Source: a virus. From it: 64,000 bases of DNA. Of this stretch, positions 20,646 through 38,356 are shown piece after piece; positions within the stretch are counted from its first letter, which is position 1; each line of letters begins with the position of its first letter. The stretch lies in the IMG/VR virus record IMGVR_UViG_3300011005_000053; one strand, 5' to 3'. The notes under the pieces were generated by a model. That model saw only the letters and a program-made list of their open reading frames with translations, made no database searches and had not been told where the DNA came from. Both the position numbers and the translations under genes were made by a program.

Positions 20646-20655
20646 GAGGATTTTT

Positions 20656-21686: not shown

Positions 21687-21688
21687 AA

Positions 21689-22119: not shown

Positions 22120-22130
22120 GAGGAATGCAT

Positions 22131-22286: not shown

Positions 22287-22291
22287 GAAGA

Positions 22292-22612: not shown

Positions 22613-22615
22613 TTT

Positions 22616-23569
22616 ATGCATTATGTTGAAAGTATGTTCAGTGTCCGCGAGAAACCCTGGCACTATTCCATGACGAAAGATGTGACAAAGATCCTGCAGG
22701 ACGCGCCGAACAGCGCCGAGGCTCTGCGTCTGGCCGGCCTGGATTGGAACGTGATCCAGAAAGACATCCAGCTCAAGGACGAAAATGGCGATCGGATTCC
22801 AGGCTATAAGGCCAACGTTCGCTCTTCGGACAACCGTGTGCTCGGCGTGGTATCCGACCGCTACCGCATCGTTCAGAACACCGAGGCGTTTGCGTTCACT
22901 GACGAGCTGATCGGCGGCGATGTCCGATACGAAACCGCCGGCAGCCTCCAGAACGGCAAGAAAGTCTGGCTGCTGGCCCGGCTTCCGGATACGAAACTGG
23001 TCGGAGACGACGTGGAATCCTACGTTTGCTTCTCGAATACGCATGACGGCAGCGGCAGCGTCCGCGTCTGTATGACACCGATCCGCGTGGTGTGCAACAA
23101 CACGCTGAACCTGGCTCTGAACTCGGCTAAGCGTGCGTGGAGTACGCCGCATGTGGGCGACGTTCAGGGCAAGATCCGCGAGGCGCGGCAGTGCCTCGAA
23201 CTGGCGGAGGATTATATGGATTCTCTGGCCGAGTACGCCGACAAGCTCGCTAATACGAAACTGGAAGAGACGAAGCTGCGGGAGATCATTGACGAAATGT
23301 TTGCCGTCCCCGAGGATGAAACCGATCGCAAGAAGGCAAACGCACAGGCAGCCAAGGACAGTTTCATGGTGTGCTACTTTGCGCCCGACATTGCCAAGTT
23401 CCGTGGTACGGCATGGGGTGCAGTCAACGCCATGAGCGATATGGTCTCTCACGCAGCTCCGGCCCGCAACACCGGCACCTATGCCGAAAACAACTGGGGA
23501 CGAATCATGGATGGCCATGCGCTTCTGGATCAGCTGGTGGCCAAAGTCGGAAAATTTGTGGAGGATTAA
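22616..23569 (+). CDS. DUF932-family (phage/plasmid-related) protein
   Basis: FSNTHDGSGSVRV matches the NxHDGS signature of this family. CAAGGAGGAATTTGATTT then ATG. Confidence 0.55.
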   Translation: MHYVESMFSVREKPWHYSMTKDVTKILQDAPNSAEALRLAGLDWNVIQKDIQLKDENGDRIPGYKANVRSSDNRVLGVVSDRYRIVQNTEAFAFTDELIGGDVRYETAGSLQNGKKVWLLARLPDTKLVGDDVESYVCFSNTHDGSGSVRVCMTPIRVVCNNTLNLALNSAKRAWSTPHVGDVQGKIREARQCLELAEDYMDSLAEYADKLANTKLEETKLREIIDEMFAVPEDETDRKKANAQAAKDSFMVCYFAPDIAKFRGTAWGAVNAMSDMVSHAAPARNTGTYAENNWGRIMDGHALLDQLVAKVGKFVED

Positions 23570-23571
23570 TG

Positions 23572-23841
23572 ATGAAAGTGTACGTTGTGCTGACTTGGTG
23601 GGACACCGATCAGGACGACGGCCGCGAGGTTCTTGGAGCGTGGGCGGACAGAGACTCCGCCCGCGCCGCCATGAAGGCGGACGTGAATCCGATCAAAAAA
23701 CTCTACGCCGGTATGGATTGGAAATGGGATGAAGAGTACAGCGAAGAGACGGACGACTACGTCTATCTCGCTGCCGGAATCATGGACCCGTATGGAGCAA
23801 CCATTTATTGTTGGGAAGTCCTCGAAATGGACGTTCAGTAA
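23572..23841 (+). CDS. hypothetical protein
   Basis: TAATGATG overlaps the upstream stop. Confidence 0.5.
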   Translation: MKVYVVLTWWDTDQDDGREVLGAWADRDSARAAMKADVNPIKKLYAGMDWKWDEEYSEETDDYVYLAAGIMDPYGATIYCWEVLEMDVQ

Positions 23842-23851
23842 GGAGGAAGCG

Positions 23852-24052
23852 ATGCAGACATATACGATTTGTTTTCAGGTGACAGGAGGAATTTCCGTTG
23901 AAGCGGAATCGGAAGATGCGGCTCTGGAATACTTCTGGAGTGACGCCGGGCAAGAAGCTGTCGGTATGTGCCTGAGTCAGAACGAAATCGATGTAACAGA
24001 AATTTTAGATGAAGAGACCGTGAATTGGTTGGAGGAGGTAAAACACTCATGA
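23852..24052 (+). CDS. small acidic hypothetical protein
   Basis: GTAAGGAGGAAGCG then ATG. Confidence 0.5.
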   Translation: MQTYTICFQVTGGISVEAESEDAALEYFWSDAGQEAVGMCLSQNEIDVTEILDEETVNWLEEVKHS

Positions 24053-24498
24053 AGTATAGCGAAGCGAAAAAGATTCTGGACTCCATACGAAACAGCCATA
24101 AGTATGGCGGCGAAGTTCAGTTCCGTATGGCGGTTTACCACCTGATCGATACCGGCATGCGAAACTTTACGCCGGAAATCGTTGAGTCCACCTGCAAGAA
24201 AATCGATCAGCAGGACGATTCCAATGCAGTGATGACAAACGATTACCAGAAACGAATTGTCCGCCGGGCGGCCGAAATCGCTAAATCTGGCATTGATATC
24301 ACGCAGCTTCTGGTCTACATCCAGAGGGAATTCAGTTTCGATGTGGGCGACTTCATCACGGCCGACACGCTGGCCTACCGTCTGGCCCGTGTGTTGGAGG
24401 AGGATTACTGTACCGACCGGTCCGTTCTGTACGACCGCCTTGAATCTCTTGGTGCAGATATCTCTCCAGAGGAACTGAAGTATGTTGACCTTGTTTGA
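24049..24498 (+). CDS. hypothetical protein
   Basis: GGAGGAGGTAAAACACTC then ATG. ATGA overlap. Confidence 0.55.
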   Translation: MKYSEAKKILDSIRNSHKYGGEVQFRMAVYHLIDTGMRNFTPEIVESTCKKIDQQDDSNAVMTNDYQKRIVRRAAEIAKSGIDITQLLVYIQREFSFDVGDFITADTLAYRLARVLEEDYCTDRSVLYDRLESLGADISPEELKYVDLV

Positions 24499-24537
24499 TA
24501 AAACGAAGAAAGTAGCAGAGTAAAAGGAGGAATCAAA

Positions 24538-24948
24538 ATGTTTATAACGAAATTAGATCTTGCACAGGCCAATGAGCGAGAGCGGATCATTTTTGGCTAC
24601 GACTACAGGCCGGAGTTTTACGGTATGGGAGGAATTCGGTATTTCGAGCATATGCCGGTAGAAAAAGCAAAAGAACTTCTGGAGCGCGGATATATCGATC
24701 CGGACGACACGCAGAATCTTTCGCCGACGAACCAGTCTATGATCGATTTCTGTGATGACGAAACAGGGAAATGGTATCTGCACGGCTATGTGGTCAGTCC
24801 GACCAGGCTCGATACCCGCGTCAGCTTTGAGGGCGTCGGTTCCGACGCACCGCTGACCGATAAGGAAGTAGCCGATTTCTACCGTATGTTCCGCTGGGCA
24901 GACGAGTGCGACGCCGGCGATTGCGGAGCCTATTGCTGGTACGATTAA
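24538..24948 (+). CDS. hypothetical protein
   Basis: AAAAGGAGGAATCAAA then ATG. Confidence 0.55.
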   Translation: MFITKLDLAQANERERIIFGYDYRPEFYGMGGIRYFEHMPVEKAKELLERGYIDPDDTQNLSPTNQSMIDFCDDETGKWYLHGYVVSPTRLDTRVSFEGVGSDAPLTDKEVADFYRMFRWADECDAGDCGAYCWYD

Positions 24949-24960
24949 AGGAGGACGGAC

Positions 24961-25194
24961 ATGTACACACACGATGAACTTGTAGATATCGTAAGCGCAG
25001 CCAACATCTCAGGCTGCATGGAACACGCAGAGCGAATCAACATTTTTGATGACGAAACCTTGCTCGGCGTGATCGAAAAGGAATATGCCAAATGGCGTGA
25101 AAGCTGCGGAGTTACCATGGAGAATTCCAATGGAACCACATGGTACAGCTGGATCGAAAACGCGCTGCTCAAAAAATTCGGGAGGGATCAGTGA
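24961..25194 (+). CDS. hypothetical protein
   Basis: AAAGGAGGACGGAC then ATG. Confidence 0.55.
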   Translation: MYTHDELVDIVSAANISGCMEHAERINIFDDETLLGVIEKEYAKWRESCGVTMENSNGTTWYSWIENALLKKFGRDQ

Positions 25195-25195
25195 T

Positions 25196-25495
25196 ATGAA
25201 TCTGCGCGACCATCTGCTGGTGATCATCGGCATGAAAGCGGCCTACATGGACAAGAACTGCTGGATCGAACTCCCGTTTGGCGAACAGGGCGAAGAAAAA
25301 GTGGCCACTGTCTGCATATTGATCGTCGATCAGTATCTGAAAATCAAATCGCTTGGCTGGCTGGACGAGCCATTCGATCTCTTCACAGAACGCAGGCTGG
25401 AATATCACTTCGGCCACAGCAAAGAACTGATGTACCATGTGCGTCTGCCCGACCTGTCCGAGGCAGATATGTTTGAAGACGAAATGACTGTTTGA
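25196..25495 (+). CDS. hypothetical protein
   Basis: GGGAGGGATCAGTGAT then ATG. Confidence 0.5.
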   Translation: MNLRDHLLVIIGMKAAYMDKNCWIELPFGEQGEEKVATVCILIVDQYLKIKSLGWLDEPFDLFTERRLEYHFGHSKELMYHVRLPDLSEADMFEDEMTV

Positions 25496-25506
25496 TTTTC
25501 TGCATA

Positions 25507-25560
25507 AACCAGAATTAGGGTATTGACAAATGCGCGGAGGCGTGAATTGAATATTGGTCC
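25507..25560 (+). promoter_or_regulatory. conserved-motif promoter (AACCAGAATTAGGGTATTGACA) with weak -10
   Basis: TTGACA at 25524-25529. The -10 is poor (ATTGAA or TATTGG). Confidence 0.45.
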
Positions 25561-25589
25561 ACGCCTCCTGTCACAAAGGAGGAATGTGG

Positions 25590-26266
25590 ATGAGCGGATA
25601 TTACAACCGTAATGTGATCGCAAAATTCAACGACGCCTACGCAGCATATGAAGAAAAGTTTATAGACGGCGAAGAGCTGCATGTGAAATTCTCGGGAGGG
25701 AATTCCAAAATGGGAGCTGTTCCAAGCGCGTCCCTGCTTCCGTTTCTGACCTGCCCAGCCAGGTGCAGAGATACTTGTGGCCCCGCCTGTTACGCCGCCA
25801 AGCTTGCCAATCTGCGGCCGAGCGTCCTGAACTCTTACGCCAACAATACAGTGTTGGCCGTCCGTGACATGGATCGTTATTTCGAAGAAATCCGCGATTT
25901 CTGCAGAGCACAGCGCTTCTTCCGCTTTCACGTCTCCGGAGATATTATCAACAACCAGTATTTTGAGGGAATGCTTTGGACGGCAAATGAAAATCCGCAC
26001 TGCGAATTTTGGCCTTCACCAAACGATTTGAGATCGTAAACGAATACCAGGAGCTGCCGACGAATTTACATATCCTGTTTTCCGGCTGGACGAATCTGAA
26101 ACCCGTTAACCCGTATAAATTCCCGGAAACCAACATCTTCACAGAAGAAAATCCGCCGAAGGAAAACTGGACGATCTGCGGCGGCAATTGTTTCGAGTGC
26201 GCCTGTCGCGGCACCGGATGCTGGACAATTCACAACGGCGAGACTCTTGCCTTTCATAAGCATTAA
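25590..26266 (+). pseudogene. Gp37/Gp68-like (DUF5131-type, Cys-rich) gene apparently split by a frameshift near 26010-26040
   Basis: The first frame ends at 26039. A second frame, open from 25987, continues the protein to 26266 with no start signal. N-terminal TCPARCRDTCGPACYA and C-terminal CGGNCFECACRGTGC Cys clusters fall in the two frames. Confidence 0.35.
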
Positions 26267-26318
26267 TAGAGAGAAGAATTTTGGACAACACACGATGTAA
26301 ATTTAAGGAGGAAATCGA

Positions 26319-27047
26319 ATGAGCCATTATGCCGTAGCTGTTTTTCACCGTCCCGATCAGGACATCGACGATCTGCTCGCCCCGTTTGACGAGAATCTGG
26401 AGGTCGACCCGTATCTCTCCTATACGAAGCAGGAGGCCATCGACCATGTGCGGCAGCATTGGTCTTTTGTGATGGACGGCCCCAAGAAAATTCCCGTTGC
26501 AGAGGCGACCGACGCACAGTGCTATGCCTACATCGCTTCTGATTATGCGTCAGACATGAAAGACGAGGATGGAAACCTGTATTCCACCTACAATCCGAAT
26601 TCCAAGTGGGACTGGTATCAGGAGGGAGGCAGATGGAGCGGCAGCCTTCGACTGAAATCCGGAGGAATAACAGACAGCGCCGCCGTCCGTGACCTGGATT
26701 TCTCGCCCGATATGACAGAGTATGAAGAGGCCGCGATCTGGTGGGACAAAGCCGTTGACGGCAAGGTAGAGGAAGGAGAGGAAAAGCCCCTCTGCTTCTT
26801 CAGAGAGGATTACATGAGGCAGCGCTACCGCGACCGGGAAACGTATGCCAGATTGAATTCGGTGTTCAACACTTACGCTGTGCTGACGCCGGATGGCGTT
26901 TGGCATGAACCCGGACAGATGGGATGGTTCGGCTGTTCCAGCGAGGAGCCTGAGGACGGCCTGTATTGGGACGAGCATTACCAGGAAACCTTCATTGATA
27001 CGGCCGATCCGGACTGGATCCTCACGGTGGTGGACTGTCATATTTAA
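26319..27047 (+). CDS. hypothetical protein
   Basis: TAAGGAGGAAATCGA then ATG. Confidence 0.55.
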   Translation: MSHYAVAVFHRPDQDIDDLLAPFDENLEVDPYLSYTKQEAIDHVRQHWSFVMDGPKKIPVAEATDAQCYAYIASDYASDMKDEDGNLYSTYNPNSKWDWYQEGGRWSGSLRLKSGGITDSAAVRDLDFSPDMTEYEEAAIWWDKAVDGKVEEGEEKPLCFFREDYMRQRYRDRETYARLNSVFNTYAVLTPDGVWHEPGQMGWFGCSSEEPEDGLYWDEHYQETFIDTADPDWILTVVDCHI

Positions 27048-27161
27048 ATTACCAACATCTACCTGCTTGACAGACAGTAATTGGTAACGTATGATGAGTG
27101 TATAGAAAAATAGATATTACGCAAATGCGTAATTGTGAAGCATTAAACTTTTGCAAATGCA

Positions 27162-27189
27162 TTGACAAATTCCAAAAAATCAGTATAAT
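27162..27189 (+). promoter_or_regulatory. sigma-A type promoter (TTGACA-16-TATAAT) with upstream GCAAATGC direct repeats and a 5'-UTR hairpin
   Basis: TTGACA at 27162-27167, TATAAT at 27184-27189. GCAAATGC occurs twice at 27121-27160. The UTR forms an 8-bp stem GCGAAGCG...CGCTTCGC. Confidence 0.55.
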
Positions 27190-27252
27190 CGAGTGCGAAG
27201 CGGGCTGCTGAAAAGCAATTCGCTTCGCCCTCCCAACTGGAAAGGAGTGTAT

Positions 27253-28050
27253 ATGGGAGAGCTGATCCTGTTTGATCCGACGAAGCCGAGAAACACGGAT
27301 TATGAAGTTGTACAGAGTGCGTTCCACGGAAGAAACGAAATCGCAAGAAGTCATGCTGCGACACCGATCAAGCGCATTGAAGATATCATGCTGGTCGAAG
27401 ATTATATCCTGAACCGGCGGGACTACCGCAAAGAGGAAATTCGTCTGCGGGATTACCTGATGTTCGTCATGGGAATCAATTTCGGCCTGCGGGCAGGAGA
27501 CCTGCTGCGGCTGCAGTACGGACACATCCTGGAGCCGAACGGGCGAGTGCGTGATATGATCGAGCTGATCGAGGAGAAAACGGAAAACACAAACGCCAGA
27601 CTGAAACGCCGGCATGTGTATGTGAACGACGACGTGTTCGACGCGCTGAAAATTTACATGTCCGGCCGCCGCATCGATCTGGATGATTACCTGTTTACCA
27701 GTCAGAGCAACAACGTCGGTCTCTGGGACGAATCCAAATGCCTGTCACGTCGCAACGCTGAGCGCATTCTGAAACAGATCGTGGAAGCAGAGCTGAAATT
27801 GGACGTTCACGCCAGCACCCACATGATGCGGAAGACGTTTGCGTATCAGACGCTGATGAGTGTGCCGGATCGAAACCGGGCGCTTGAGATCGTGCAGACG
27901 ATCCTGAACCACTCCACGCCGCAGATGACCATGCATTACATCGGTATCACGGAAGATGAGATCCAGAACGCTTACAAAACCTTAAGTCTCGGTCTGGGTC
28001 GGAAGAACGGAATGGATTTCTACCGCAGTTCGGGAGCGTGGGCCGTATGA
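27253..28050 (+). CDS. tyrosine recombinase B (XerC/D-sized)
   Basis: HMMRKTFAYQ (HxxR) and LNHSTPQMTMHYIGI (H...Y) catalytic motifs. GGAAAGGAG then ATG. Confidence 0.75.
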   Translation: MGELILFDPTKPRNTDYEVVQSAFHGRNEIARSHAATPIKRIEDIMLVEDYILNRRDYRKEEIRLRDYLMFVMGINFGLRAGDLLRLQYGHILEPNGRVRDMIELIEEKTENTNARLKRRHVYVNDDVFDALKIYMSGRRIDLDDYLFTSQSNNVGLWDESKCLSRRNAERILKQIVEAELKLDVHASTHMMRKTFAYQTLMSVPDRNRALEIVQTILNHSTPQMTMHYIGITEDEIQNAYKTLSLGLGRKNGMDFYRSSGAWAV

Positions 28051-28268
28051 AAAAGAGTCTGTACGGAGGAAAGCCGAAAAATCCCTGCGCCTACTGTGCC
28101 CATCACAAAAGGAATTTGACGGTCCCGGAGATGCGTCTCCATGAATGTCTGCAGAAACAGTGCTTCCATCTGCGGAAAAACGATCATCCGTACTGGAAGC
28201 AGCGTGAAGTTATGAAACAAAAACGAAAAGACCGCAAGGCGTATTACGACGCGTTGGCTGGGAGGTGA
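28047..28268 (+). CDS. basic zinc-finger-like small protein
   Basis: CAYCAHH...C...C. ATGA overlap. Confidence 0.45.
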   Translation: MKKSLYGGKPKNPCAYCAHHKRNLTVPEMRLHECLQKQCFHLRKNDHPYWKQREVMKQKRKDRKAYYDALAGR

Positions 28269-28273
28269 TAACT

Positions 28274-28984
28274 TTGGAAGTCGTGATTTTTTTATTCGCG
28301 CTCATTGTTTTTGTTGTTGCCGCTATCGGCGCCAATACAAGCAGTGTTATGAAATACCGTAAGTGGCAAAAGAAACTATACGATACAGCAGATCAAATTC
28401 AAAGCATTGGCAATGAGCGCAGCAACACACTACGAGAGCTTTTGAATGGACAAAACCCAACGCGTTATAACTTCCTATTGGAATTTGATGAGGCGATGCG
28501 GCTTTATGACGTAATGCTTAAAAAATACGAAGGTGAACACCCTCCAGGAAGTGCATATGACGAATGGACGGTTGAATATGGGGCTTCTATGCTTAAAACA
28601 CATAAGCATATGACATTTCAGCCTGGAGATTACTATCATTCTGATGTGGAATGGAACTATAGAGATTCTGTCGTATATACCTATAAAGAACCATGGTGTT
28701 CTTATGGAGGAAGTTTAGAGATACGAACGTGGTATCTATCGCCGGCCATGTATTGCCTTGGACTTGCTCGATATGAAGTGATCAAACATGGATATCTCCC
28801 AAGCAATGTCTATCAAGATTTTGGTAATAGCTATACTCCATTCATGCCGGGGCCATATAGAACAGGCGGTTTTCCAAGTGATATTGTTACACTTGTTTAC
28901 GATGTTTTGCATGGCAAGCGTACGCGCGAAGACGCACGTCTCGCATTGACAAGGAAGCAGCATGACTACGACAATATAAAATAG
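28274..28984 (+). CDS. membrane-anchored hypothetical protein, markedly lower GC (~42%), moron-like
   Basis: N-terminal TM helix. AT-rich codon usage unlike its neighbours. GGGAGG plus 7 nt then TTG. Confidence 0.5.
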   Translation: MEVVIFLFALIVFVVAAIGANTSSVMKYRKWQKKLYDTADQIQSIGNERSNTLRELLNGQNPTRYNFLLEFDEAMRLYDVMLKKYEGEHPPGSAYDEWTVEYGASMLKTHKHMTFQPGDYYHSDVEWNYRDSVVYTYKEPWCSYGGSLEIRTWYLSPAMYCLGLARYEVIKHGYLPSNVYQDFGNSYTPFMPGPYRTGGFPSDIVTLVYDVLHGKRTREDARLALTRKQHDYDNIK

Positions 28985-28995
28985 GAGGAATGCCC

Positions 28996-29226
28996 ATGAA
29001 CAACAAACGTCGCGCAGCCATCCGTGCCATCGCCGAAAAGCTCGAACAGCTCTCAGAAGAAATCGAGTCGATCCGGGACGACGAACAGGACTACTTCGAC
29101 AACATGCCTGAGAATTTACAGGGATCGGAAAGGGGTGAGATCGCAGAAAACGCCCTTGACGCACTGGAAGAAGCGAGCAGCAATTTAGAGGAAGCCATCG
29201 GAAATTTAGAGAATGCAGCAGAATAA
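28996..29226 (+). CDS. acidic coiled-coil small protein
   Basis: TAGGAGGAATGCCC then ATG. Confidence 0.5.
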   Translation: MNNKRRAAIRAIAEKLEQLSEEIESIRDDEQDYFDNMPENLQGSERGEIAENALDALEEASSNLEEAIGNLENAAE

Positions 29227-29237
29227 GGATGAGGAAC

Positions 29238-29483
29238 ATGAATCTTAACTGGAACCAAGCCGAGACCAGACGTGACGATGATTATGTGTGCTGTGAGGTG
29301 CCGGTCACACTGCCGGCACCAGGCATTCCCGATTACGCCAAACGGGCCATGGTCATCATGACCAACTATAACTACAAAGCAGCGCTGTGCTACCTGGACG
29401 AAGACGACAGGCCGCACTACATAGACCACGCATTTGCGCAAGAGGAAATTGAAAAACTGAAAAGGATGGTGTCCAGCCCATGA
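29238..29483 (+). CDS. hypothetical protein
   Basis: AGGATGAGGAAC then ATG. Confidence 0.45.
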   Translation: MNLNWNQAETRRDDDYVCCEVPVTLPAPGIPDYAKRAMVIMTNYNYKAALCYLDEDDRPHYIDHAFAQEEIEKLKRMVSSP

Positions 29484-29698
29484 AACGGTTCAGAACCACC
29501 AGACGTGTGCGCCGGCTTTGCGGCGAGACACTGCAGACTTATGGCGAGAACGCCGTACTGTATTTCGACCACCGCGAGGGAGGGAAATACGCGGCTGTCT
29601 ACTATGACCCGGCCAACAATCAGATGATCTTGGTCGAGTCCCACGACGTGTCAGCCCCTAAGCTCGAACTGGATTTCACAAAATTTTCGAAAAAATAA
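29480..29698 (+). CDS. hypothetical basic protein
   Basis: ATGA overlap. Confidence 0.45.
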   Translation: MKRFRTTRRVRRLCGETLQTYGENAVLYFDHREGGKYAAVYYDPANNQMILVESHDVSAPKLELDFTKFSKK

Positions 29699-29738
29699 GA
29701 ATTAGGGTATTGACAAATCGGCGCAAATGTGCTATAGT
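29694..29738 (+). promoter_or_regulatory. conserved-motif promoter (AAGAATTAGGGTATTGACA-17-TATAGT)
   Basis: TTGACA at 29710-29715, TATAGT at 29733-29738. Confidence 0.6.
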
Positions 29739-29761
29739 TACACACGAAGGGAGGTCGTTGT

Positions 29762-30121
29762 ATGAACAGAATACCGGATTTCGGTGACGTTTACGTCGCC
29801 AGCCTAACCGTGAATGGCAGTGTGCAGGGAGGAATCCGCCCCGTGATCATCGCGCAGAACAACACGGGCAATCAGCACAGTCCCACGATCGAAGTCATTC
29901 CGATGTCCAGCCGTGTCGGCAAGGCCAGCTATCTGCCGACGCACGTTGTGATCAGTGCCGAACAGGAAAACGGATTGCGTCAGGACAGCATCGCGCTGAC
30001 CGAACAGACGCAGACCATCAATCAGTCGCAGCTCAGCCGCAAGCTCGGTCATCTTACATGGAACGACCTGATCCGTGTGGGACGAGCCCGGCGCGTACAA
30101 TCTCCATTTCCAACAGAATAA
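29762..30121 (+). CDS. MazF/PemK-family endoribonuclease toxin-like protein
   Basis: GDVYVASL...GSVQGGIRPVIIAQNN...IEVIPMSS...HVVISAEQENGLRQDSIALTEQTQTINQSQL fits the Kid/PemK/MazF fold pattern. GAAGGGAGG plus 7 nt then ATG. It has its own strong promoter. Confidence 0.65.
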   Translation: MNRIPDFGDVYVASLTVNGSVQGGIRPVIIAQNNTGNQHSPTIEVIPMSSRVGKASYLPTHVVISAEQENGLRQDSIALTEQTQTINQSQLSRKLGHLTWNDLIRVGRARRVQSPFPTE

Positions 30122-30165
30122 ATCAGAAATAGGGTATTGACAAACTCGCTTACATATGGTATAAT
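30121..30165 (+). promoter_or_regulatory. conserved-motif promoter (AATCAGAAATAGGGTATTGACA-17-TATAAT)
   Basis: TTGACA at 30137-30142, TATAAT at 30160-30165. The best consensus copy. Confidence 0.65.
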
Positions 30166-30190
30166 ACCTGTAATGCGAGGAGGAATGTTC

Positions 30191-31123
30191 ATGTTCAACC
30201 CGGAGATCAAACAAAAATTCATCGAATCTTTAAGTAAAGCGGACGTCGTGCAGGCCACCTATTCCATGGGGCGCATTGCGGAAATGATCGAGGAGCCGCT
30301 GAACACCGACTATTTTGAACTGGTCGCCGCAGGACGCACAAAAGAGATCTATCAAAGCGTCGAGGAAAAAGGAACCACTATTGCCTATAGGACCTACCGC
30401 AATATTTTTCATTACGGCAAGCTGTATGTCCGCTGGCGCTGCATTACAGACGGCGTGTTCGTCAACGAAAAAGACCACCCGACCATCGCAAACGGGGAGA
30501 CGTACAACTTTTCCCTGACGCCCGCCTTTTCCAAACAGCTTGTGCTGACAGAGAACGATCTGGAGCTCGTGTGCAACAAACTCCGCAACTACCGCGAAAG
30601 CGCACAGCTTCCGGTCATCTACTGTCTGGCGTGGCTGGGGCAGAGCGCCGAGGACATCCGCACTCTGAAAGAAAATGAGGTATACTTCTCAGGCGACGGC
30701 AGCGTTATGATCGGGAACCACATGATCGACGACGGTTTTGTGTCCCGCAAGCTGCATGAATACGCCGAGACAGAGGTCGTGATCGGCAACGCCGCCCCGC
30801 TGGAGAAGGCAGACGGCGACACTTTTTACCGCAGATTTGTGAAGCGTGGCTCCGCCAAAAACAAGCCGATCGGAACCCGGTTTTTATCCAACACCATTAC
30901 GGAGGCCGGCGCCGCCATCGGCCAGGAGGTTGTGGTATCCATCCGCGACCTGAATTATTTCGGCGCCTTCGCCGAGATCCGGGCTTTTACCGAAAAATAT
31001 GGCATCCAGGCGGACGCCAGTCATATTGTTCGTTTCTTCGGAGTCAAAAGCACGACACACAAAAACGACCTTTTGCACGCCTACCAATGTTATTTGGAAG
31101 CCGTAAAAGAAAGGGGCGGTTAA
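30191..31123 (+). CDS. hypothetical protein (310 aa)
   Basis: GAGGAGGA plus 6 nt then ATG at 30191. Confidence 0.5.
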   Translation: MFNPEIKQKFIESLSKADVVQATYSMGRIAEMIEEPLNTDYFELVAAGRTKEIYQSVEEKGTTIAYRTYRNIFHYGKLYVRWRCITDGVFVNEKDHPTIANGETYNFSLTPAFSKQLVLTENDLELVCNKLRNYRESAQLPVIYCLAWLGQSAEDIRTLKENEVYFSGDGSVMIGNHMIDDGFVSRKLHEYAETEVVIGNAAPLEKADGDTFYRRFVKRGSAKNKPIGTRFLSNTITEAGAAIGQEVVVSIRDLNYFGAFAEIRAFTEKYGIQADASHIVRFFGVKSTTHKNDLLHAYQCYLEAVKERGG

Positions 31124-31148
31124 CCGTCCTTTTCTTTTCGGATCATAA

Positions 31149-31170
31149 AATCAGAATTAGGGTATTCACA
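31149..31170 (+). promoter_or_regulatory. degenerate conserved element (AATCAGAATTAGGGTATTCACA) 5 nt upstream of the tRNA cluster
   Basis: TTCACA in place of TTGACA. Any -10 would fall inside the tRNA. Confidence 0.45.
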
Positions 31171-31175
31171 ATTAT

Positions 31176-31252
31176 GCTGGCGTGGCGCAATTGGCAGACG
31201 CACCGGACTTAAAATCCGGTTTCTGCGGGTTCGATCCCCGCCGCCAGTACCA
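31176..31252 (+). tRNA. tRNA with anticodon TAA and a short (class I) variable loop; atypical for a Leu-reading tRNA
   Basis: Hand fold. Acceptor GCUGGCG/CGCCAGU, anticodon arm CCGGA-CUUAAAA-UCCGG, T arm GCGGG-UUCGAUC-CCCGC, CCA encoded. Confidence 0.55.
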
Positions 31253-31464
31253 TCTTTCACAAAAACCGGAGGGCACACCGTCTTATTGCAGACGGCGGAA
31301 CAACTATTCTTTGCGAATCCTTAATGTGCCGCGAACCGCAGGCAGACCCGGACACAGTACCGCCGATTTTGTTTTCTTTTCTCATCCTCCTTTGTCAAAA
31401 TCGGGTAACAGAAACGGCTTCACCTGCAAGCGCCGCTTAGTTTTGACGGTCTAAGCGGACATAC

Positions 31465-31540
31465 GCTGTCGTAGCTCAATTGGAAGAGCGACGCCCCTGT
31501 AAGGCGTAGGTTATGAGTTCAAGTCTCATCGGCAGCTCCA
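31465..31540 (+). tRNA. tRNA-Thr (anticodon TGT), C at position 33
   Basis: Hand fold. Acceptor GCUGUCG/CGGCAGC, D arm GCUC-AAUUGGAA-GAGC, anticodon arm ACGCC-CCUGUAA-GGCGU, T arm AUGAG-UUCAAGU-CUCAU, CCA encoded. Confidence 0.6.
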
Positions 31541-31543
31541 CAC

Positions 31544-31617
31544 ACTGCGGTAGCTCAACGGCAGAGCGGGCGACTTATAATCGTCTGATAAAAGTTCAAC
31601 TCTTTTCCGCAGTACCA
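31544..31617 (+). tRNA. tRNA-Ile (anticodon TAT)
   Basis: Hand fold. Acceptor ACUGCGG/CCGCAGU, anticodon arm GGCGA-CUUAUAA-UCGUC, T arm AAAAG-UUCAACU-CUUUU, CCA encoded. Only 3 nt after the previous tRNA. Confidence 0.6.
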
Positions 31618-31646
31618 TCAATCTTTTTAGACAGGAGGAAAGTCCA

Positions 31647-31895
31647 ATGTACCAGTTGTATTTTGAACGCAGCAACGGCGAGATCCAGCCGGTAGCCAGG
31701 GCCCCCGACGACAAGAGCGTGTGGCCGGCCATCCGCGACGACATCGCAAGACGAAATCCGAATTTTGTGGTGTACTACATACGAAATTGGGTGGTTAATC
31801 GGAACGGCGAGCCGGCGACTATGTTCGATGTGGGAAGCCACACAGAGTTCTATTACTGTGTGCCGCCGCTTCCGCAGGAGGAGGAACCTACATGA
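31647..31895 (+). CDS. hypothetical protein
   Basis: ACAGGAGGAAAGTCCA then ATG. Confidence 0.55.
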   Translation: MYQLYFERSNGEIQPVARAPDDKSVWPAIRDDIARRNPNFVVYYIRNWVVNRNGEPATMFDVGSHTEFYYCVPPLPQEEEPT

Positions 31896-32077
31896 GCTGC
31901 CAGCACGAAAACGCCGCGTCCGTCCGCCTCGGTGCATACGAAATCGATCCGTGTGAATTCGAAGAAGTGGAACGACATGCCAATGTTACGGTCAGCATTC
32001 TACGCTGTCCGAAATGCGGCAAGGTCAGCATCGGCTGGCTCAGACAGGAGGATACGATCGATCTGGAGGTGGAGTAA
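31892..32077 (+). CDS. zinc-ribbon small protein
   Basis: CxxC...CPKCG. ATGA overlap. Confidence 0.5.
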   Translation: MSCQHENAASVRLGAYEIDPCEFEEVERHANVTVSILRCPKCGKVSIGWLRQEDTIDLEVE

Positions 32078-32280
32078 TTCGATTTTGAAATTGATGTAAC
32101 GGCCATTGTGCTTCGCATTTACCGCACTCTTTGTGCCATAGGAATTTGGGCAGTTGTATATGGTCTCGTGACCAACCTGACGCCGTATCACTCCATGACG
32201 CCGATCGCCAAGATCCTTCTGGCTGTGGCTGCGTGGCTGATCGAGAATAAACTTGCCTATTACTTATTTGTGGAGGAAGT

Positions 32281-32592
32281 ATGAAAGGATTTTTGCACTT
32301 CCTGTTCTGGAAGCTGTGCCGCCGGCATCTGATTTGGGACGGAAACGTCCTGCGCTGCAGTGTATGCGGCGATGTGATCGGCGGCCGCTACCTGAAAGAC
32401 AACGCGACGCATGTCTTTCTCTTCACGAAATACCACGATTGGAAACAGGATATTCTGGATATGCCAGACACGGCTATGGCTCCGTATGTCGATCTGGAGT
32501 ATCAGGAATTCGATCAATTTATGGAGGAGCTGAAATATTCCGTCCGTTCCGCACGGGATATGACATTGGAGGAAAACGAATTTGACGAATAA
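32281..32592 (+). CDS. hypothetical protein
   Basis: TGTGGAGGAAGT then ATG. Confidence 0.55.
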   Translation: MKGFLHFLFWKLCRRHLIWDGNVLRCSVCGDVIGGRYLKDNATHVFLFTKYHDWKQDILDMPDTAMAPYVDLEYQEFDQFMEELKYSVRSARDMTLEENEFDE

Positions 32593-33160
32593 GGAACGCT
32601 TTGATCATCTGTATCACGACATTCACCGCTCTGGTGCAGACGAACTGTACAATTACCTGCAGCGCAGCGATTTCTTTACGGCTCCGGCGTCCACCCGCTT
32701 TCACGGCAATTACGAAGGCGGTCTGCTGGAACATTCGCTGAACGTATACGACTGTCTGCTGAAAATGCTGGAGACGGTTTGCCCGGAGCGCAGCTATCCC
32801 GATGAAACGATTTTGATCGTCTCCCTCCTGCATGACCTGTGCAAGACTAACTTTTACAAGCCTGGCACACGTAATGTGAAGAACCCGGAAACAGGGAAGT
32901 GGGAGACGAAAGAGGTCTACGAGATCGATGAGATGTGGCCTCTCGGAGATCATTCCGACAAATCTCTGGTGTTGATCCAGAATTTCATGCACCTGACCAC
33001 CGATGAAATTTATGCCATTCGTGCCCATATGGGATTCAGCGACGCCACCTTTAAGGGCGGCAGCCAGATGATCGGCCGTATCTTTGAAAAGTGCCCGCTG
33101 GCTCTGGCGTTACATATGGCCGACATGATGGCGACTTATACCATGGAGGAAAAGCGATGA
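32582..33160 (+). CDS. HD-domain phosphohydrolase (YhaM-like)
   Basis: FHGNYEGGLLEHSLNV, LLHDLCK and GDHSD motifs. TTG start after GGAGGAAAA. Confidence 0.6.
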   Translation: MTNKERFDHLYHDIHRSGADELYNYLQRSDFFTAPASTRFHGNYEGGLLEHSLNVYDCLLKMLETVCPERSYPDETILIVSLLHDLCKTNFYKPGTRNVKNPETGKWETKEVYEIDEMWPLGDHSDKSLVLIQNFMHLTTDEIYAIRAHMGFSDATFKGGSQMIGRIFEKCPLALALHMADMMATYTMEEKR

Positions 33161-33211
33161 GGAAATCGCATACTGCTCATGTGTCCATTTACAGGTTTAC
33201 GCCTGATTAAA

Positions 33212-33233
33212 AATCAGAATTAGGGGATTCACA
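33212..33233 (+). promoter_or_regulatory. degenerate conserved element (AATCAGAATTAGGGGATTCACA) abutting the start of the annealase gene
   Basis: It ends 2 nt before the TTG start at 33236. No -10 box and no SD. Confidence 0.4.
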
Positions 33234-33235
33234 CA

Positions 33236-33916
33236 TTGGAAAATAATAAAGCAAAAGAGATATTCGACACGCTGTTTGCGGTCGATGTAAGTCAGTATAC
33301 CGACGCCCGAAAGGGCCTGACGTATCTTCCTTGGAGCCACGCACTGTCCGAAGTGATGAAGCTCTATCCGGATATGAGTTACAGCATCCGGCGTTTCGGC
33401 CCGGATGAACTGCCGTACCAGTATGATCCGGTGCTTGGTTATATGGTTTTTACCACCGTGACCATCGGCGGTATCACAAAGGAAATGTGGCTGCCGGTAC
33501 TGGATACCAACAACAAGGCCATGAAGGCCGACCCGTATACATATGATACGAAGACTACAAAGGGAATCCGGGTAGAGGCCGCGACCTTCTACGACATCAA
33601 CAAGGCGCTGATGCGCTGCCTTGTAAAGAACATCGCCGCGTTCGGCCTTGGTATGTACATCTATAACAAAGACGACCTGCCCGAGGCTGTCACCGAGGAA
33701 CAGGAAAGAGCAGCAGAGGAGCTCGCCGCCGCCATCAAGCGTGTTGTAGCCGCCGGCACGAAACTGATCAAGGCCGGTTATTCCAAGGAAGAGATGTACG
33801 CTGTTGTGGAGCGCATTAACGGCAACAAGCAGCCCAACACGATCCCCAGTGTCGAAGTCGCCAAGCAGATCGAAGATGAATTCGCCAACATGATGAAGAA
33901 GAAAGAGGGAAAGTAA
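33236..33916 (+). CDS. Rad52/Sak-like single-strand annealing protein
   Basis: GLTYLPWSHALSEVMKLYPDMSYSIRRFG and a conserved core typical of phage Sak / Rad52-22 annealases. TTG start without an SD. Confidence 0.6.
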   Translation: MENNKAKEIFDTLFAVDVSQYTDARKGLTYLPWSHALSEVMKLYPDMSYSIRRFGPDELPYQYDPVLGYMVFTTVTIGGITKEMWLPVLDTNNKAMKADPYTYDTKTTKGIRVEAATFYDINKALMRCLVKNIAAFGLGMYIYNKDDLPEAVTEEQERAAEELAAAIKRVVAAGTKLIKAGYSKEEMYAVVERINGNKQPNTIPSVEVAKQIEDEFANMMKKKEGK

Positions 33917-33917
33917 G

Positions 33918-34307
33918 ATGTTTTGGGTAACGAACAAGTACGCAAAGGTCTGGAAGATTTTCGGTGTGGACGGCAAGTACGCTGATATGAACATCAGCAC
34001 GTCCGAAAAGAAACAGGATGGCACTTATGCCAACAGCTCCTGGCCCGCAAGAGCCATCGGCCATGCCCTCCAGCAGGTGAAGACCGGTAAGATCAAAGAG
34101 GGTAATACATACGCCATCACGCAGGCCAAGGTGTCCAACGAATCTTATAAGGATAAAGACGGCAATTGGAAAAACAATCTCCGTCTGCTCGTGATGGAAT
34201 TTGGTCCTTCCGGCGCTGACGGCCAGAATGCTAAGCCGAAGGCCGCCACGCCCACCAAGGGTGTTGATGTTTCCGCCGCTAACGACGATGAGGAAGAGCC
34301 TTGGTAA
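33918..34307 (+). CDS. ssb: single-stranded DNA-binding protein (OB fold) with acidic C-terminal tip
   Basis: ~129 aa, ends DDEEEPW. Sits next to the annealase. Confidence 0.55.
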   Translation: MFWVTNKYAKVWKIFGVDGKYADMNISTSEKKQDGTYANSSWPARAIGHALQQVKTGKIKEGNTYAITQAKVSNESYKDKDGNWKNNLRLLVMEFGPSGADGQNAKPKAATPTKGVDVSAANDDEEEPW

Positions 34308-35050
34308 ACGCCAAAGGCCAGACCGTCTACTCTTATTCTCAGCTCAACACCTTTGAGCAATGCCCGTACAGTTGGTTCAAGATCTATAAGGAAAAGGCGC
34401 CGCGAGAAAACAACGCCTTTTCCTCGTACGGAACTTTGATCCACGAGCTGCTCCAGCAGTGTGCATGCGGTGATTTGAAACGGGAAGATCTGGCCGAGCT
34501 TTTTGAATGGAGCTACGAGGCCAGCATCCCGGAGGAATTTCCTCCGAACAAATATGTCAATCTGCACGACAGCTATTTGCAACAGGGCATTGATTTCTTC
34601 CATAACTTCGAGGGTTTCGATGATCTCGAAATCCTCGGGGTCGAGGATCATTTTGAAATCGACATGGGCGATTTCGCCCTGCAGGGTTTCATCGACCTGA
34701 TCTACCGGGACAAAAACGGCAAGCTGGTGTGCCGTGACTGGAAGAGCGGGAAGCGGTGGACGAAAAAGGATATCGCCGAACATGGCAAACAGCCGTACTT
34801 ATATTCGGCCTACATCAAAGAGAAATTTGGCCGCTACCCGGACAGGCTTGAGTTCTTCCATTTCCGTGAAGGCAACAAGAAATCGGTCATTCCGTTCAAC
34901 ATTAAGGACTTCCACGCCGCTGAACAGTGGGCGCGTGATACGGTAAAAGCCATTAACGAAACATGGGATTACGCCAGTCATTACGATGAGTTCTTCTGTA
35001 AGGAATTGTGCTCCTGCCGGAGCTCCTGCGATCAAAAGAAAAAGGGGTGA
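34301..35050 (+). CDS. PD-(D/E)xK exonuclease with C-terminal Cys cluster (Cas4/RecB-like)
   Basis: N-terminal YSYSQLNTFEQCPYSWFKIY and C-terminal CKELCSCRSSC (Fe-S-like). TTG start overlapping the ssb stop. Confidence 0.6.
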   Translation: MVNAKGQTVYSYSQLNTFEQCPYSWFKIYKEKAPRENNAFSSYGTLIHELLQQCACGDLKREDLAELFEWSYEASIPEEFPPNKYVNLHDSYLQQGIDFFHNFEGFDDLEILGVEDHFEIDMGDFALQGFIDLIYRDKNGKLVCRDWKSGKRWTKKDIAEHGKQPYLYSAYIKEKFGRYPDRLEFFHFREGNKKSVIPFNIKDFHAAEQWARDTVKAINETWDYASHYDEFFCKELCSCRSSCDQKKKG

Positions 35051-35055
35051 TTTTA

Positions 35056-35259
35056 ATGAAGAGAAGATGGCTTTCTATTCTCTCTGAGGTCTTATGTGTT
35101 CTATGTCTGATTATGGAAAACGTGATTCTGACCACACAATATCATGTGTCGTGGCTCGTGTGCGCCGGTATTTGCTGCCTGGCAGTCATGTGGGCTTTGA
35201 ACGGAGCCGCGTTGATGATCGACCTGATTAATAAATGGGATAAAGAAGGGCGAGAATGA
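35056..35259 (+). CDS. small two-TM membrane protein
   Basis: AAAGGGGTGATTTTA then ATG. Confidence 0.5.
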   Translation: MKRRWLSILSEVLCVLCLIMENVILTTQYHVSWLVCAGICCLAVMWALNGAALMIDLINKWDKEGRE

Positions 35260-35549
35260 TTCAAACAGAATTCAGGCGTTATACGCCAATCGTAGACGGA
35301 TTTCAGATCCGCGATGTTACATATGTGGACGGCCGCGTCGATGAATACCCGGAACTGTACGACATCGTGAAGTGGAACGGTGATTATTGCTACACAGTCG
35401 CCACGCTGAAATGGAACGCTCATGAGCCATGCTTTGAGTTCCAGTCCTGCGGTATGCGCTGGCTTGAGGCCGAGCCTACAGAGCGCGTCATTATCATGGT
35501 CAAGCGTTTCGCGTCCATGGCTCACTGCTGGATGGAGGACGCGGAATGA
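35256..35549 (+). CDS. hypothetical protein
   Basis: ATGA overlap. Confidence 0.5.
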   Translation: MIQTEFRRYTPIVDGFQIRDVTYVDGRVDEYPELYDIVKWNGDYCYTVATLKWNAHEPCFEFQSCGMRWLEAEPTERVIIMVKRFASMAHCWMEDAE

Positions 35550-35899
35550 ATCTGAAAGATGAAACGTTGGAGATCATGGCAGAACACGGCAAAACAAAAG
35601 AGGACATTGTCTGGATCGGCTGCCGTGATTTCGCCATTGGCCCGGCTACTTTTTGGAGACTGGCTGATCGTATGTACGACAGCGGATATGGATGGCAGGA
35701 AGTCGCCACCGATCTCCTTGTCGTTGGCGACAACTGGTGGATGGAACGGCATGAATATGACGGTTCTGAATGGTGGGAATATAAAGAGCCTCCGAAAATG
35801 CCGTTTGTATGTAAAGATGTACAGCGCATTATTCGCGGCCCTAACCAGACTGGCTGGAGCAAACTGGCTGAAATGAATGAGGAGGGGAAGCAGGAATGA
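35546..35899 (+). CDS. hypothetical protein
   Basis: ATGA overlap. Confidence 0.5.
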   Translation: MNLKDETLEIMAEHGKTKEDIVWIGCRDFAIGPATFWRLADRMYDSGYGWQEVATDLLVVGDNWWMERHEYDGSEWWEYKEPPKMPFVCKDVQRIIRGPNQTGWSKLAEMNEEGKQE

Positions 35900-36225
35900 A
35901 TCGGGCACAGCGACGCAAATTCGACAAAGCGGTTGGTTTCGATGGGGCTTCTGCGGTAGCAGAGGCTTTGCAAAACGAAATGAAGATTCCGGACGGCGCA
36001 AAGGTAAAACTGAACGTAGATCAAATCACCGCCCGTAAAGACTATCGCTCGAAGCTTCCGGCATACCAGGATTTTGTTGTCAGGAATCGCGACACCGTAT
36101 TCACCGCACGTCGTGTCTGGCCCACGAAGCGCCATAGCTTTCTGGAGCTGGAAGAGGATACGACAAAGCCGAAATGGTTATGGTGGGACGGCGACCTGAT
36201 TGTAGTGGAGGAGGAAGGCACATGA
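35896..36225 (+). CDS. hypothetical protein
   Basis: ATGA overlap. Confidence 0.5.
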   Translation: MNRAQRRKFDKAVGFDGASAVAEALQNEMKIPDGAKVKLNVDQITARKDYRSKLPAYQDFVVRNRDTVFTARRVWPTKRHSFLELEEDTTKPKWLWWDGDLIVVEEEGT

Positions 36226-36773
36226 TTCAAAAGATTCGTAAGGGAGTGTTCGAGACGAACAGCTCCAGCACCCACAGCATCGTCATCAGCAAAGCGCCTG
36301 TGCGTTTTCTGCCGAGCAAGGTGACCTTCCGTACAGACGAATATGGCTGGGAAAACAATTGCGTAGACGACACAGCCAGATATCTCTTCACCGGCATCCT
36401 GGACGGACCGCGGTCTCTGCGGAGCATGCGCATCGAGCGTCTTGAAAAACTGCTGGAAGAGCTCGGCGTCGAATACGAATTCGTTTATCCGGCATATAAC
36501 GCCGAGTACGACTGCTACGACTGCTATGTCGACCACAGCTATGAACTCAGTGAGTTTATCGACGCGGTTCTGGCCGATAAGGATCTGCTGGCCCGCTATC
36601 TCTTTGGTGATAGTTGTATCTATACCGGCAACGACAATCAGGACTGTGTGCCGGATGGCTGTAATATCGGCGACGAAACCATTTGGAAATATGACGATAG
36701 CGGCAAATATTCCGAGATGCCAAATCCTTATCACGACGAAGAGCACTATCAGTATTTTGTAAAGGGGAATTGA
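36222..36773 (+). CDS. hypothetical protein, paralog A (N-terminal MIQKIRKGVFETNSSSTHSI; Cys/Tyr/Asp-rich C-terminus)
   Basis: GAGGAGGAAGGCAC then ATG. The first 21 aa are near-identical to the next gene. Confidence 0.55.
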   Translation: MIQKIRKGVFETNSSSTHSIVISKAPVRFLPSKVTFRTDEYGWENNCVDDTARYLFTGILDGPRSLRSMRIERLEKLLEELGVEYEFVYPAYNAEYDCYDCYVDHSYELSEFIDAVLADKDLLARYLFGDSCIYTGNDNQDCVPDGCNIGDETIWKYDDSGKYSEMPNPYHDEEHYQYFVKGN

Positions 36774-36774
36774 T

Positions 36775-37134
36775 ATGATTCAGATCCGGCGCGGTGTCTT
36801 TGAAACGAACAGCAGTTCGACCCACTCCATCACGATGTGTATGAAATCGGACTTTGATGAGTGGAAAAATGGTCATATTTACTATAATGAGGGCTATCCC
36901 AGCAAACAATTTATGCAAAAAGACGAAGCTTTTGAGCTTTTGAGAAGCGATAAGTGGGATCCTGTTTCGGAACCTGAAAAGTTATCGGAGGACGAGCTTC
37001 TGGCAATTATGCGCGAACACGAAATCTATACGTATGACACGTATTATTACGAGTACCTGGAATGGTATGACGACTCGTTTACGACGCCGTCCGGCGAGAC
37101 GGTGGTAGCATTCGGCTGGTACGGCCACGACTAA
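36775..37134 (+). CDS. hypothetical protein, paralog B (N-terminal MIQIRRGVFETNSSSTHSI; Tyr/Asp/Glu-rich)
   Basis: Same N-terminal motif as 36222-36773. Confidence 0.55.
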   Translation: MIQIRRGVFETNSSSTHSITMCMKSDFDEWKNGHIYYNEGYPSKQFMQKDEAFELLRSDKWDPVSEPEKLSEDELLAIMREHEIYTYDTYYYEYLEWYDDSFTTPSGETVVAFGWYGHD

Positions 37135-37146
37135 GGAGGAATTTGG

Positions 37147-38028: not shown

Positions 38029-38029
38029 C

Positions 38030-38340: not shown

Positions 38341-38356
38341 TTAAGGAGGTGACCCA

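Follow-up and report, generated by a model that had tools for sequence, protein, structure and literature searches.

The mazF gene and its product

The window analysed here is the whole 64,000-nucleotide (nt) stretch of IMG/VR virus record IMGVR_UViG_3300011005_000053, and the gene in question, mazF, codes for a 119-residue protein of the MazF/PemK family. It lies between an open reading frame (ORF) for a basic protein of 72 amino acids (aa) and a gene for a 310-aa protein (coordinates are given in Table 1). The mazF ORF begins with ATG, and AAGGGAGG, a good Shine-Dalgarno sequence, is found 8 nt 5' of the start. The product matches the Pfam family PemK_toxin (PF02452) with E = 3.3e-21 and 76 bits (cut-off 23.1), over residues 8–108 of 119 and profile positions 3–103 of 109 (101/109), and it matches phrog_1936, 'MazF-like growth inhibitor', with E = 3e-24. 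The chromosomal MazF enzymes of Bacillota, namely B. subtilis EndoA/NdoA, S. aureus MazF and B. anthracis MoxT (PDB 4MDX, 4MZM and 4HKE), belong to the same family, have the same length and are matched with E ~1e-20 and 46–47% identity over about 105 residues. An earlier reading of this DNA, made from the sequence without database searches (the sequence-only reading), had called the protein MazF/PemK-like, and these matches confirm it as a true MazF/PemK homologue, with the homology spanning the whole domain.

The RNA-channel motifs of the Bacillota enzymes (G-S-x-Q-G-G-x-R-P, LPTHV and DSxxxxEQ) are kept in the phage protein, and the catalytic Arg is retained as R26, equivalent to R25 of the B. 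subtilis enzyme. However, the phage protein differs from Bacillota MazF in having Val in place of Glu20, Ser in place of Thr48 and Gln in place of Arg81, all three at positions that are invariant in 80 bacterial relatives. Ser at the Thr48 position, S49 in the phage protein, is present in the active MazF7 of M. tuberculosis (PMC7354611), and the Gln at the Arg81 position is Q84. The Glu is that of the β1–β2 loop (E20 in B. subtilis, E24 in E. coli; motif G-S-E-Q-G-G-x-R-P), and it is replaced by V21. All 80 bacterial relatives have Glu at this position, in a scan whose pattern permitted Val. V21 is common to the MazF of a sister phage and to a 48%-identical homologue. We surveyed viral MazF genes at 80 IMG/VR loci, which form 46 clusters at 90% identity, and found Val or Ile at the Glu position in 14 of the loci, or 11 of the clusters (Fisher p = 7e-5 versus bacteria); this set takes in the five closest relatives of the window MazF. 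So far, these Glu to Val/Ile forms are seen only in viral contigs. The E24A mutant of E. coli MazF does not cleave RNA and is harmless alone, yet it binds MazE, and by titrating MazE it activates the chromosomal MazF (PMC3924284). The E20A mutation in MazF-Da nearly abolishes activity (PMC8634880).

The genes for the 72-aa protein, MazF and the 310-aa protein follow one another in the same order in the sister phage (Logan contigs L011/L012), which is about 91% identical at the nucleotide level. MazF is better conserved between the two phages (94% aa identity) than either neighbour (88% for the 72-aa and 82% for the 310-aa protein), and the ratio of nonsynonymous to synonymous substitution rates (dN/dS) is 0.053, showing that mazF is under purifying selection. 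In the search for close relatives, a word-index search gave one distant relative only, and a single-protein viral scan gave none.

Promoters and the repressor neighbour

A consensus promoter directly 5' of mazF was part of the sequence-only reading, and it is indeed present, with 11 of 12 matches to consensus; the −35 box, the TG extension and the −10 box are all conserved in the sister phage. The gene for the 48%-identical MazF, located on a contig of 1.2 kb, likewise has a promoter to itself, TTGACA-17-TATAAT, and the ORFs upstream of it are unrelated to those of the window. Promoter-like matches are common in this 8-kb region (11, versus 7.9 ± 2.4 in shuffles). The mazF promoter sits in a conserved element of about 24 nt, AATCAGAAWTAGGGTATTGACAAA, the 15-mer core of which occurs 10 times in the window, versus 1.3 expected; 0 of 100 shuffles reached 10. 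Most copies of the element overlap a −35 box, and its upstream half is kept even where the −35 box is degenerate, for example before tRNA-Gln and tRNA-Leu. The copy at 11589 is an eleventh, degenerate one. The 72-aa ORF ends 4 nt before the element at mazF, and a second copy starts at the mazF stop codon (30121). No terminator is present between mazF and the gene for the 310-aa protein. These signals predict transcription of mazF both from a strong promoter of its own and by polymerase reading through from genes upstream.

The 310-aa protein had been listed in the sequence-only reading among possible partners of MazF. Instead, it is homologous to SroF/MrpR/YopR, the SPβ master repressor. A phmmer search of PDB with the single sequence found YopR (8bj6, 2e-4), and a profile of its 14 relatives, obtained by exhaustive search, matched YopR (8bj6, 4e-11, aa 1–288), 9rd5 (5e-10) and MrpR (8a0a, 7e-10). 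Furthermore, 10 of the 14 relatives match the Pfam family MrpR_N_CB, and a tblastn search of 50,697 phage records with the 310-aa protein matched only yopR of SPβ-like Bacillus phages. The AlphaFold2 model, based on a shallow alignment, has a predicted local distance difference test (pLDDT) score of 35, too low for a fold search or to confirm the integrase fold. Given that the neighbour is a SroF/MrpR homologue, mazF lies within what is predicted to be a lysogeny-control module.

The arrangement of this module is similar to that in SPβ and phi3T, in which a SroF/MrpR gene likewise forms the 3' end of a block of same-strand genes with a tyrosine-recombinase-like gene among them. In Goe14, an SPβ-like phage, the repressor gene comes last in a same-strand operon that includes the recombinase-like yopP (yopP-yopQ-yopR). 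The block of the window ends in mazF and the repressor homologue, and its first gene codes for a 265-aa recombinase-like protein, at the place that yopP takes in the sro operon of SPβ. Recombinase-like homologues are found 0.5–3 kb 5' of MazF at 12 or more other viral loci, and a SroF/MrpR-like gene is found within about 1 kb of MazF, in both orders, in 6 of the 46 viral clusters. The phage has four tyrosine-recombinase-fold genes (5288–6382, −; 27253–28050, +; 30191–31123, +; 59186–60304, +), of which two are full-length and integrase-like, one is short and one is the SroF-like repressor. MrpR binds a 15-bp element, SPBRE, that is repeated at about 10 promoters (PMC10516654). By analogy, the 24-nt element may be the operator of the SroF-like repressor, a counterpart of SPBRE.

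The UACAUA hexamer

Bacillota MazF cuts U^ACAUA, a specificity that is conserved across B. subtilis, Listeria and S. aureus (10.64898/2026.08.06.743204), and this strict cut site is the hexamer that is distributed non-randomly in the window phage. In the genes of the early/middle block, there are 18 TACATA sites, versus 4.9 expected from synonymous-codon shuffles (3.6-fold, z 6.4); the maximum of 3000 shuffles was 13, and TACATA ranks first of the 4096 hexamers for enrichment. Dinucleotide-preserving shuffles gave an expectation of 7.4, and 0 of 1000 reached 18. All of the one-substitution neighbours of TACATA are at expectation. The sense strand has 25 UACAUA sites and the antisense strand 5, and the late genes have 2 versus 1.5 expected. 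We therefore reject avoidance of the MazF site by the phage mRNAs, since UACAU as well as UACAUA is enriched. Strand-specific avoidance is absent for all 3-6-mers; the words that are depleted (CTAG, GGWCC, CCWGG and CTGAAG) are restriction-like, and both strands lack them to a similar degree. The tRNA-Ile(UAU) of the phage reads AUA, which is part of the in-frame UAC-AUA sites.

As a positive control, the same method applied to Goe14 gave 47 UACAUA sites versus 22.8 expected, with zero sites in yopP-yopQ-yopR. This is in line with previous work on SPβ and phi3T, the transcripts of which are enriched in MazF sites, and in which MazF cleavage of lytic mRNAs favours lysogeny (10.1101/2023.04.27.537455; 10.1101/2025.11.27.690993). 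The opposite is seen with the virulent Enterocloster phage PMBT24 (OQ326496.2; L093 and L095), which is distantly related to the window phage and has a Glu-type MazF. It has 7 sense UACAUA sites versus 30.5 expected and 77 antisense sites versus 61, and the exact hexamer alone is affected. UACAUA is also strongly depleted in three Glu-type IMG/VR clusters (the L152, L162 and L104 groups). The hexamer is apparently under selection, because it is enriched in the window phage and Goe14 and purged in PMBT24. When the active-site state was compared with the UACAUA bias across the 46 viral clusters, no Val/Ile cluster was depleted (Mann-Whitney p = 0.05), a weak correlation that is only suggestive.

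One UACAUA site lies in the spacer between mazF and the sroF-like gene, on read-through transcripts and 5' of the start site from the sroF-like gene's own promoter. In the sister phage, there is also a UACAUA (L011 10260–10265, corresponding to 29739–29744 of the window) in the 5' leader of mazF, directly past the −10 box, at which the window has UACACA. This leader site could allow self-regulation in the sister phage.

These results bear on the role suggested for the protein in the sequence-only reading, an RNase used against the host or competitors. Such an active, antitoxin-free endoribonuclease would be made early and cut host or rival-phage mRNAs in host takeover or competition. It would agree with the strong early-type promoter, with the failure to find an antitoxin, with the retention of the catalytic Arg and the Ser/Thr, with the PHROGs category of such genes ('host takeover') and with the purging of UACAUA from their own mRNAs by PMBT24 and the three Glu-type clusters. 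However, the 3.6-fold enrichment in the early/middle mRNAs of the window phage is the reverse signature, no word of 3–6 nt is avoided on one strand, Val stands in place of the Glu on which the activity of MazF-Da and of E. coli MazF depends, and the gene is in a repressor module rather than among host-takeover genes. We consider this improbable as the main role of the protein in the window phage.

The search for an antitoxin

The sequence-only reading had noted no obvious antitoxin, and our searches likewise revealed no canonical one. No antitoxin family is found in the precomputed Pfam matches of all called genes between 6.7 and 53.8 kb of the window (47 kb). We constructed a hidden Markov model (HMM) of MazE, comprising the ribbon-helix-helix domain and the GYxEMxxINL MazF-binding helix, from 23 bacterial loci with MazE. 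It found nothing in the six-frame ORFs of ≥20 aa of the window or of about 90 phage loci (best E 0.25–4), and no adjacent MazE-like ORF occurs at any of the 80 IMG/VR MazF loci. A MazE/AimX/YosL-like helix anywhere in the window was also rejected, as the HMM matches were only at noise level.

The 72-aa ORF product has no Pfam, PHROG or PDB match, and its AlphaFold2 model (pLDDT 53, shallow alignment) is too poor for a fold search. It had been described as unlike MazE or PemI, and this description is borne out. As an antitoxin it is unlikely, since it is basic (isoelectric point (pI) 9.4), has no family or PDB match and has no homologue beside MazF in the 80 other viral loci; furthermore, an unrelated ORF is in its place at the 48%-identical MazF locus. 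The acidic, helical 76-aa protein encoded farther upstream belongs to phrog_4068, homologues of which are found in 9 of the 80 viral MazF loci (L099, L100, L124, L154, L171–L173, L177 and L178), in a single case, L154, directly 5' of MazF. This makes it the sole, and weak, candidate for a MazF partner. A non-canonical antidote, which was also suggested in the sequence-only reading, found no support. In a type II toxin-antitoxin pair, an adjacent antitoxin is cotranscribed from a promoter ahead of the antitoxin gene. Here, the promoter is between the 72-aa ORF and mazF, and in the explanation that we favour (see Discussion) mazF does not belong to a toxin-antitoxin pair.

One alternative is that mazF is part of a cryptic module for abortive infection, superinfection exclusion or toxin-antitoxin function. 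The antidote would be the 72-aa protein, one of the acidic 76-aa and 81-aa proteins, or the MazE of the host, and expression from the prophage would destroy the mRNAs of incoming SPβ-like phages or stabilise the element. There are small ORFs 5' of mazF on the same transcript, the phrog_4068 protein occurs with MazF at other viral loci as described above, and cross-neutralisation by a non-cognate MazE is documented (PMC10893535). Given the cut-site-rich transcripts of related phages, a MazF made by the prophage would be an effective exclusion device. On the other hand, the extra promoter between the small ORFs and mazF would give more toxin than upstream antidote, whereas type II modules work the other way round. 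The properties of the 72-aa protein given above also argue against it, no antitoxin fold was detected, and the active-site change lowers the need for an antidote. We regard this proposal as improbable.

The closest chromosomal MazFs are from 80 Clostridia/Bacillota loci (L013–L092), with 42–54% identity, and 57 of these loci lack an upstream MazE. Many of the 57 have the order alr-mazF, with a 60–180-nt ORF-free spacer that contains conserved short motifs, and a few bacterial loci have truncated MazEs of 52–64 aa, consisting of the MazF-binding helix only. Antitoxin-less mazF has been noted in part of Bacillota in a preprint (10.64898/2026.08.06.743204). Phage genes of the phrog_1936 class, such as the 'mRNA interferase' of PMBT24, ORF37 of Psychrobacillus phage Perkons and those of Ca. 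Heliusvirales gut phages, are solitary and have no annotated antitoxin, like that of the window. Thus, with MazE missing from 57 of 80 bacterial loci and this annotation class in existence, a solitary MazF is not exceptional. The phrog_1936 phage genes differ from the window gene in being at other positions, in the tail module for PMBT24, and PMBT24 also differs in keeping the Glu and in having purged UACAUA. We found no functional study of phage MazF genes of this type in the literature.

Genome context

The window belongs to a metagenomic contig of 94.8 kb (ENA ERZ3810914 NODE_31). The contig encodes Pol III alpha, DnaG/DnaB, NrdD, Sak, PD-(D/E)XK recombination genes, PhoH and four tRNAs, as well as the large terminase and the SPβ-like virion Pfam families YonD, YonB, YomW, YomV and YomU; the virion genes lie immediately to the left of the window. 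The phage is SPβ-like and about 95 kb long, with a probable Clostridia-type host. We infer a temperate lifestyle from the repressor and integrase genes only.

Other features of the window were noted. The tRNA cluster begins 53 nt past the repressor homologue, with a copy of the 24-nt element in front of it. A group I intron (Rfam RF00028, 69.7 bits) at 46200–47316 (+), with an inner 270-aa ORF at 46463–47275, is in the nucleotide-metabolism region, 5' of the PhoH-like gene. NrdD (49022–52075, +) is seemingly split, with NRDD Pfam matches on 49022–49609 and 50681–52075 separated by a GIY-YIG/helix-turn-helix gene at 49630–50568, probably a homing endonuclease. The region from 11546 to 13335, a 1.8-kb gene-free, AT-rich region between divergent transcription units, is a candidate replication origin, with about four iteron-like 30-nt direct repeats (11919–12099) and several inverted repeats. 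In the coding regions from 6.9 to 53 kb, CTAG occurs 0 times versus 17 expected, and on both strands there is a deficit of GGACC/GGTCC, CCTGG, CTGAAG, TTCGAA and CAGCTG, a pattern that resembles restriction-site avoidance. Words of the GCGGC/CGGCA type are enriched in both the window and PMBT24 and could be Chi-like.

Table 1. Positions of the mazF gene, its neighbours and associated sequence elements in the window.
Feature	Position	Strand	Remarks
MazF/PemK-family gene, 119 aa	29762..30121	+	Pfam, PHROG and PDB matches; R26 kept, V21, S49 and Q84 changed
SroF/MrpR/YopR (integrase-fold SPβ master repressor) homologue, 310 aa	30191..31123	+	
Short tyrosine-recombinase-like gene, 265 aa	27253..28050	+	Pfam Phage_integrase (PF00589) 2e-15; phrog_216 2e-39
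mazF promoter	29710..29738	+	−35 TTGACA 29710–29715, 17 nt, TG-extended −10 TATAGT 29733–29738; 11/12 matches
24-nt element copy (AATAAGAATTAGGGTATTGACAAA) overlapping the mazF −35 box	29694..29717	+	One of 10–11 copies in the window
Second 24-nt element copy and perfect promoter (TTGACA-17-TATAAT, TG) for the repressor homologue	30121..30165	+	
UACAUA in the spacer between mazF and the sroF-like gene	30151..30156	+	Conserved in the sister phage
Perfect sigma-A-type promoter (TTGACA-16-TATAAT, 12/12)	27162..27189	+	Heads the same-strand block ending in mazF and the repressor homologue
Early/middle transcription block, 67 called genes, 36 kb coding	13335..52947	+	Sense strand UACAUA-rich
Basic 72-aa ORF 5' of mazF	29480..29698	+	pI 9.4; conserved only in the sister phage (88%)
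Acidic helical 76-aa protein, phrog_4068	28996..29226	+	pI 4.1
24-nt element copies	11589–11610(−), 11674(−), 16057, 16321, 25516, 29703, 30130, 31158, 33221, 54027, 54114		
tRNA genes Leu(UAA), Thr(UGU), Ile(UAU), Gln(UUG)	31176–31617 and 16363–16436		

Discussion

What could be the function of a MazF beside a lysogeny repressor? In the Bacillus phages SPβ and phi3T, the sroA-F operon acts together with the host MazEF; SroA and SroB bind MazE, and AimX and YosL inhibit MazF. The window phage resembles these phages not only in its repressor module but also in its SPβ-like virion genes and in the MazF-site enrichment of its lytic transcripts, and it has a short element at about 10 promoters that may correspond to SPBRE. 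It differs in encoding a MazF in the module, whereas the Bacillus phages have no MazF gene and use that of the host. Furthermore, no arbitrium genes or MazE-mimic peptides were found in the window phage, and there is no detectable sequence similarity with the proteins of the SPβ/phi3T module except for SroF. The phage gene also differs from that of Bacillota MazF in lacking an upstream mazE and the synteny with alr, and in having its own promoter.

We suggest, as a favoured explanation that still falls somewhat short of an even chance, that the gene is a phage-domesticated MazF paralogue in a lysis-lysogeny control module, acting on the MazF/UACAUA axis. MazF cleavage of the UACAUA-rich lytic transcripts would damp lytic development and favour lysogeny, as in SPβ and phi3T, and the phage MazF would be the phage's own handle on this axis. 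In the decoy version of this explanation, the change from Glu to Val would mimic the inactive, MazE-binding E24A, so that the protein would be nontoxic alone. It would titrate the MazE of the host and thereby release the host MazF, as is done in phi3T by SroA and SroB, which have a different fold. This version carries about half of the likelihood that we give to the explanation as a whole, and we prefer it for the Glu to Val change and for its account of the missing antidote. The phage MazF and E24A have lost the carboxylate of the same residue, and E24A needs no antitoxin, which is the behaviour proposed for the phage MazF. Unlike E24A, an Ala substitution made in the laboratory in a distant, ACA-recognising homologue, the Val of the phage protein is natural and fixed in a phage clade, and the MazE binding is only proposed. 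For the favoured explanation as a whole, the homology, gene context, motif statistics, residue states and selection are established from the sequences, and we infer the activity of the protein or its absence, its binding to MazE and the direction of its effect.

Alternatively, within the same favoured explanation, V21 might merely attenuate the enzyme, and the protein would then cut UACAUA itself, making the switch independent of the host mazEF. RegB of phage T4 is a phage-encoded, antitoxin-less, sequence-specific endoribonuclease that inactivates the early mRNAs of the phage itself. It would be a functional analogy for this active-nuclease variant, in which the phage's own early transcripts would be the main substrates. 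However, RegB is unrelated in sequence, recognises the motif GGAG, and comes from a virulent phage with no link to lysogeny.

The effect could also be the reverse, in which case the crippled MazF would be a pro-lytic inhibitor of MazF, an analogue of AimX/YosL that forms heterodimers with the host MazF or masks UACAUA sites without cutting them. The active-site change and the UACAUA enrichment fit this proposal likewise. Lytic growth of SPβ-type phages depends on MazF inhibitors (PMC10769878), we detected no MazE-mimic peptide in the window, and the early promoter of mazF has an element that is common to other early genes. However, the place beside the repressor points to promotion of lysogeny, heterodimers between proteins of 46% identity are speculative, and in the precedent of E24A the chromosomal MazF is activated, not blocked. 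We consider a pro-lytic function improbable.

Several observations weigh against the favoured explanation of a domesticated MazF that promotes lysogeny. The RNA-contact positions are kept in the phage protein (the catalytic Arg and the equivalents of P26, N36, H59, S73, E78 and Q79), and Val differs from Ala, making residual or altered activity possible. The window MazF is only 46% identical to characterised UACAUA enzymes, and the cut site of MazF-Da, a Clostridia-type enzyme, is UACAAA. Unlike the site-free operon of Goe14, the sro-like block has 2 UACAUA sites in its 4 kb and is not significantly depleted, and the number of site positions shared by the sister phages, 6 of 8, is not above the 4.6 expected. 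SroF-adjacent MazFs of other phages include the Glu type, besides the Val/Ile types. Analogues of AimR/AimP, AimX and YosL were not found by Pfam searches of candidate ORFs or with the MazE-helix HMMs, although divergent versions are possible, and no prophage copy is present among the best 80 genome matches. The lack of an upstream MazE in most of the closest bacterial loci bears on whether the host has a mazEF.

What appears to be new here, from the sequence comparisons, is a MazF family member within an SPβ-type lysogeny module and an active-site variant not seen in bacteria. A bolder form of the proposal, which we regard as unlikely, is that phages of Clostridia have repeatedly made MazF a catalytically dead 'anti-antitoxin' decoy beside a SroF-type repressor, which would sequester the host MazE and so free the host MazF to cut the UACAUA-rich lytic mRNAs of the phage itself. 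The work on MazF and arbitrium in phi3T and SPβ has established a host toxin as a precise post-transcriptional input to the lysis-lysogeny decision, and the present locus suggests that relatives infecting gut Clostridia carry the MazF node themselves, beside the repressor. If this is true, it would account for the many phages having antitoxin-less MazF genes and the phage protein would be a naturally occurring equivalent of the E24A decoy. The enrichment or avoidance of UACAUA on the sense strand would then be a genomic read-out of which side of the MazF axis a phage is on.

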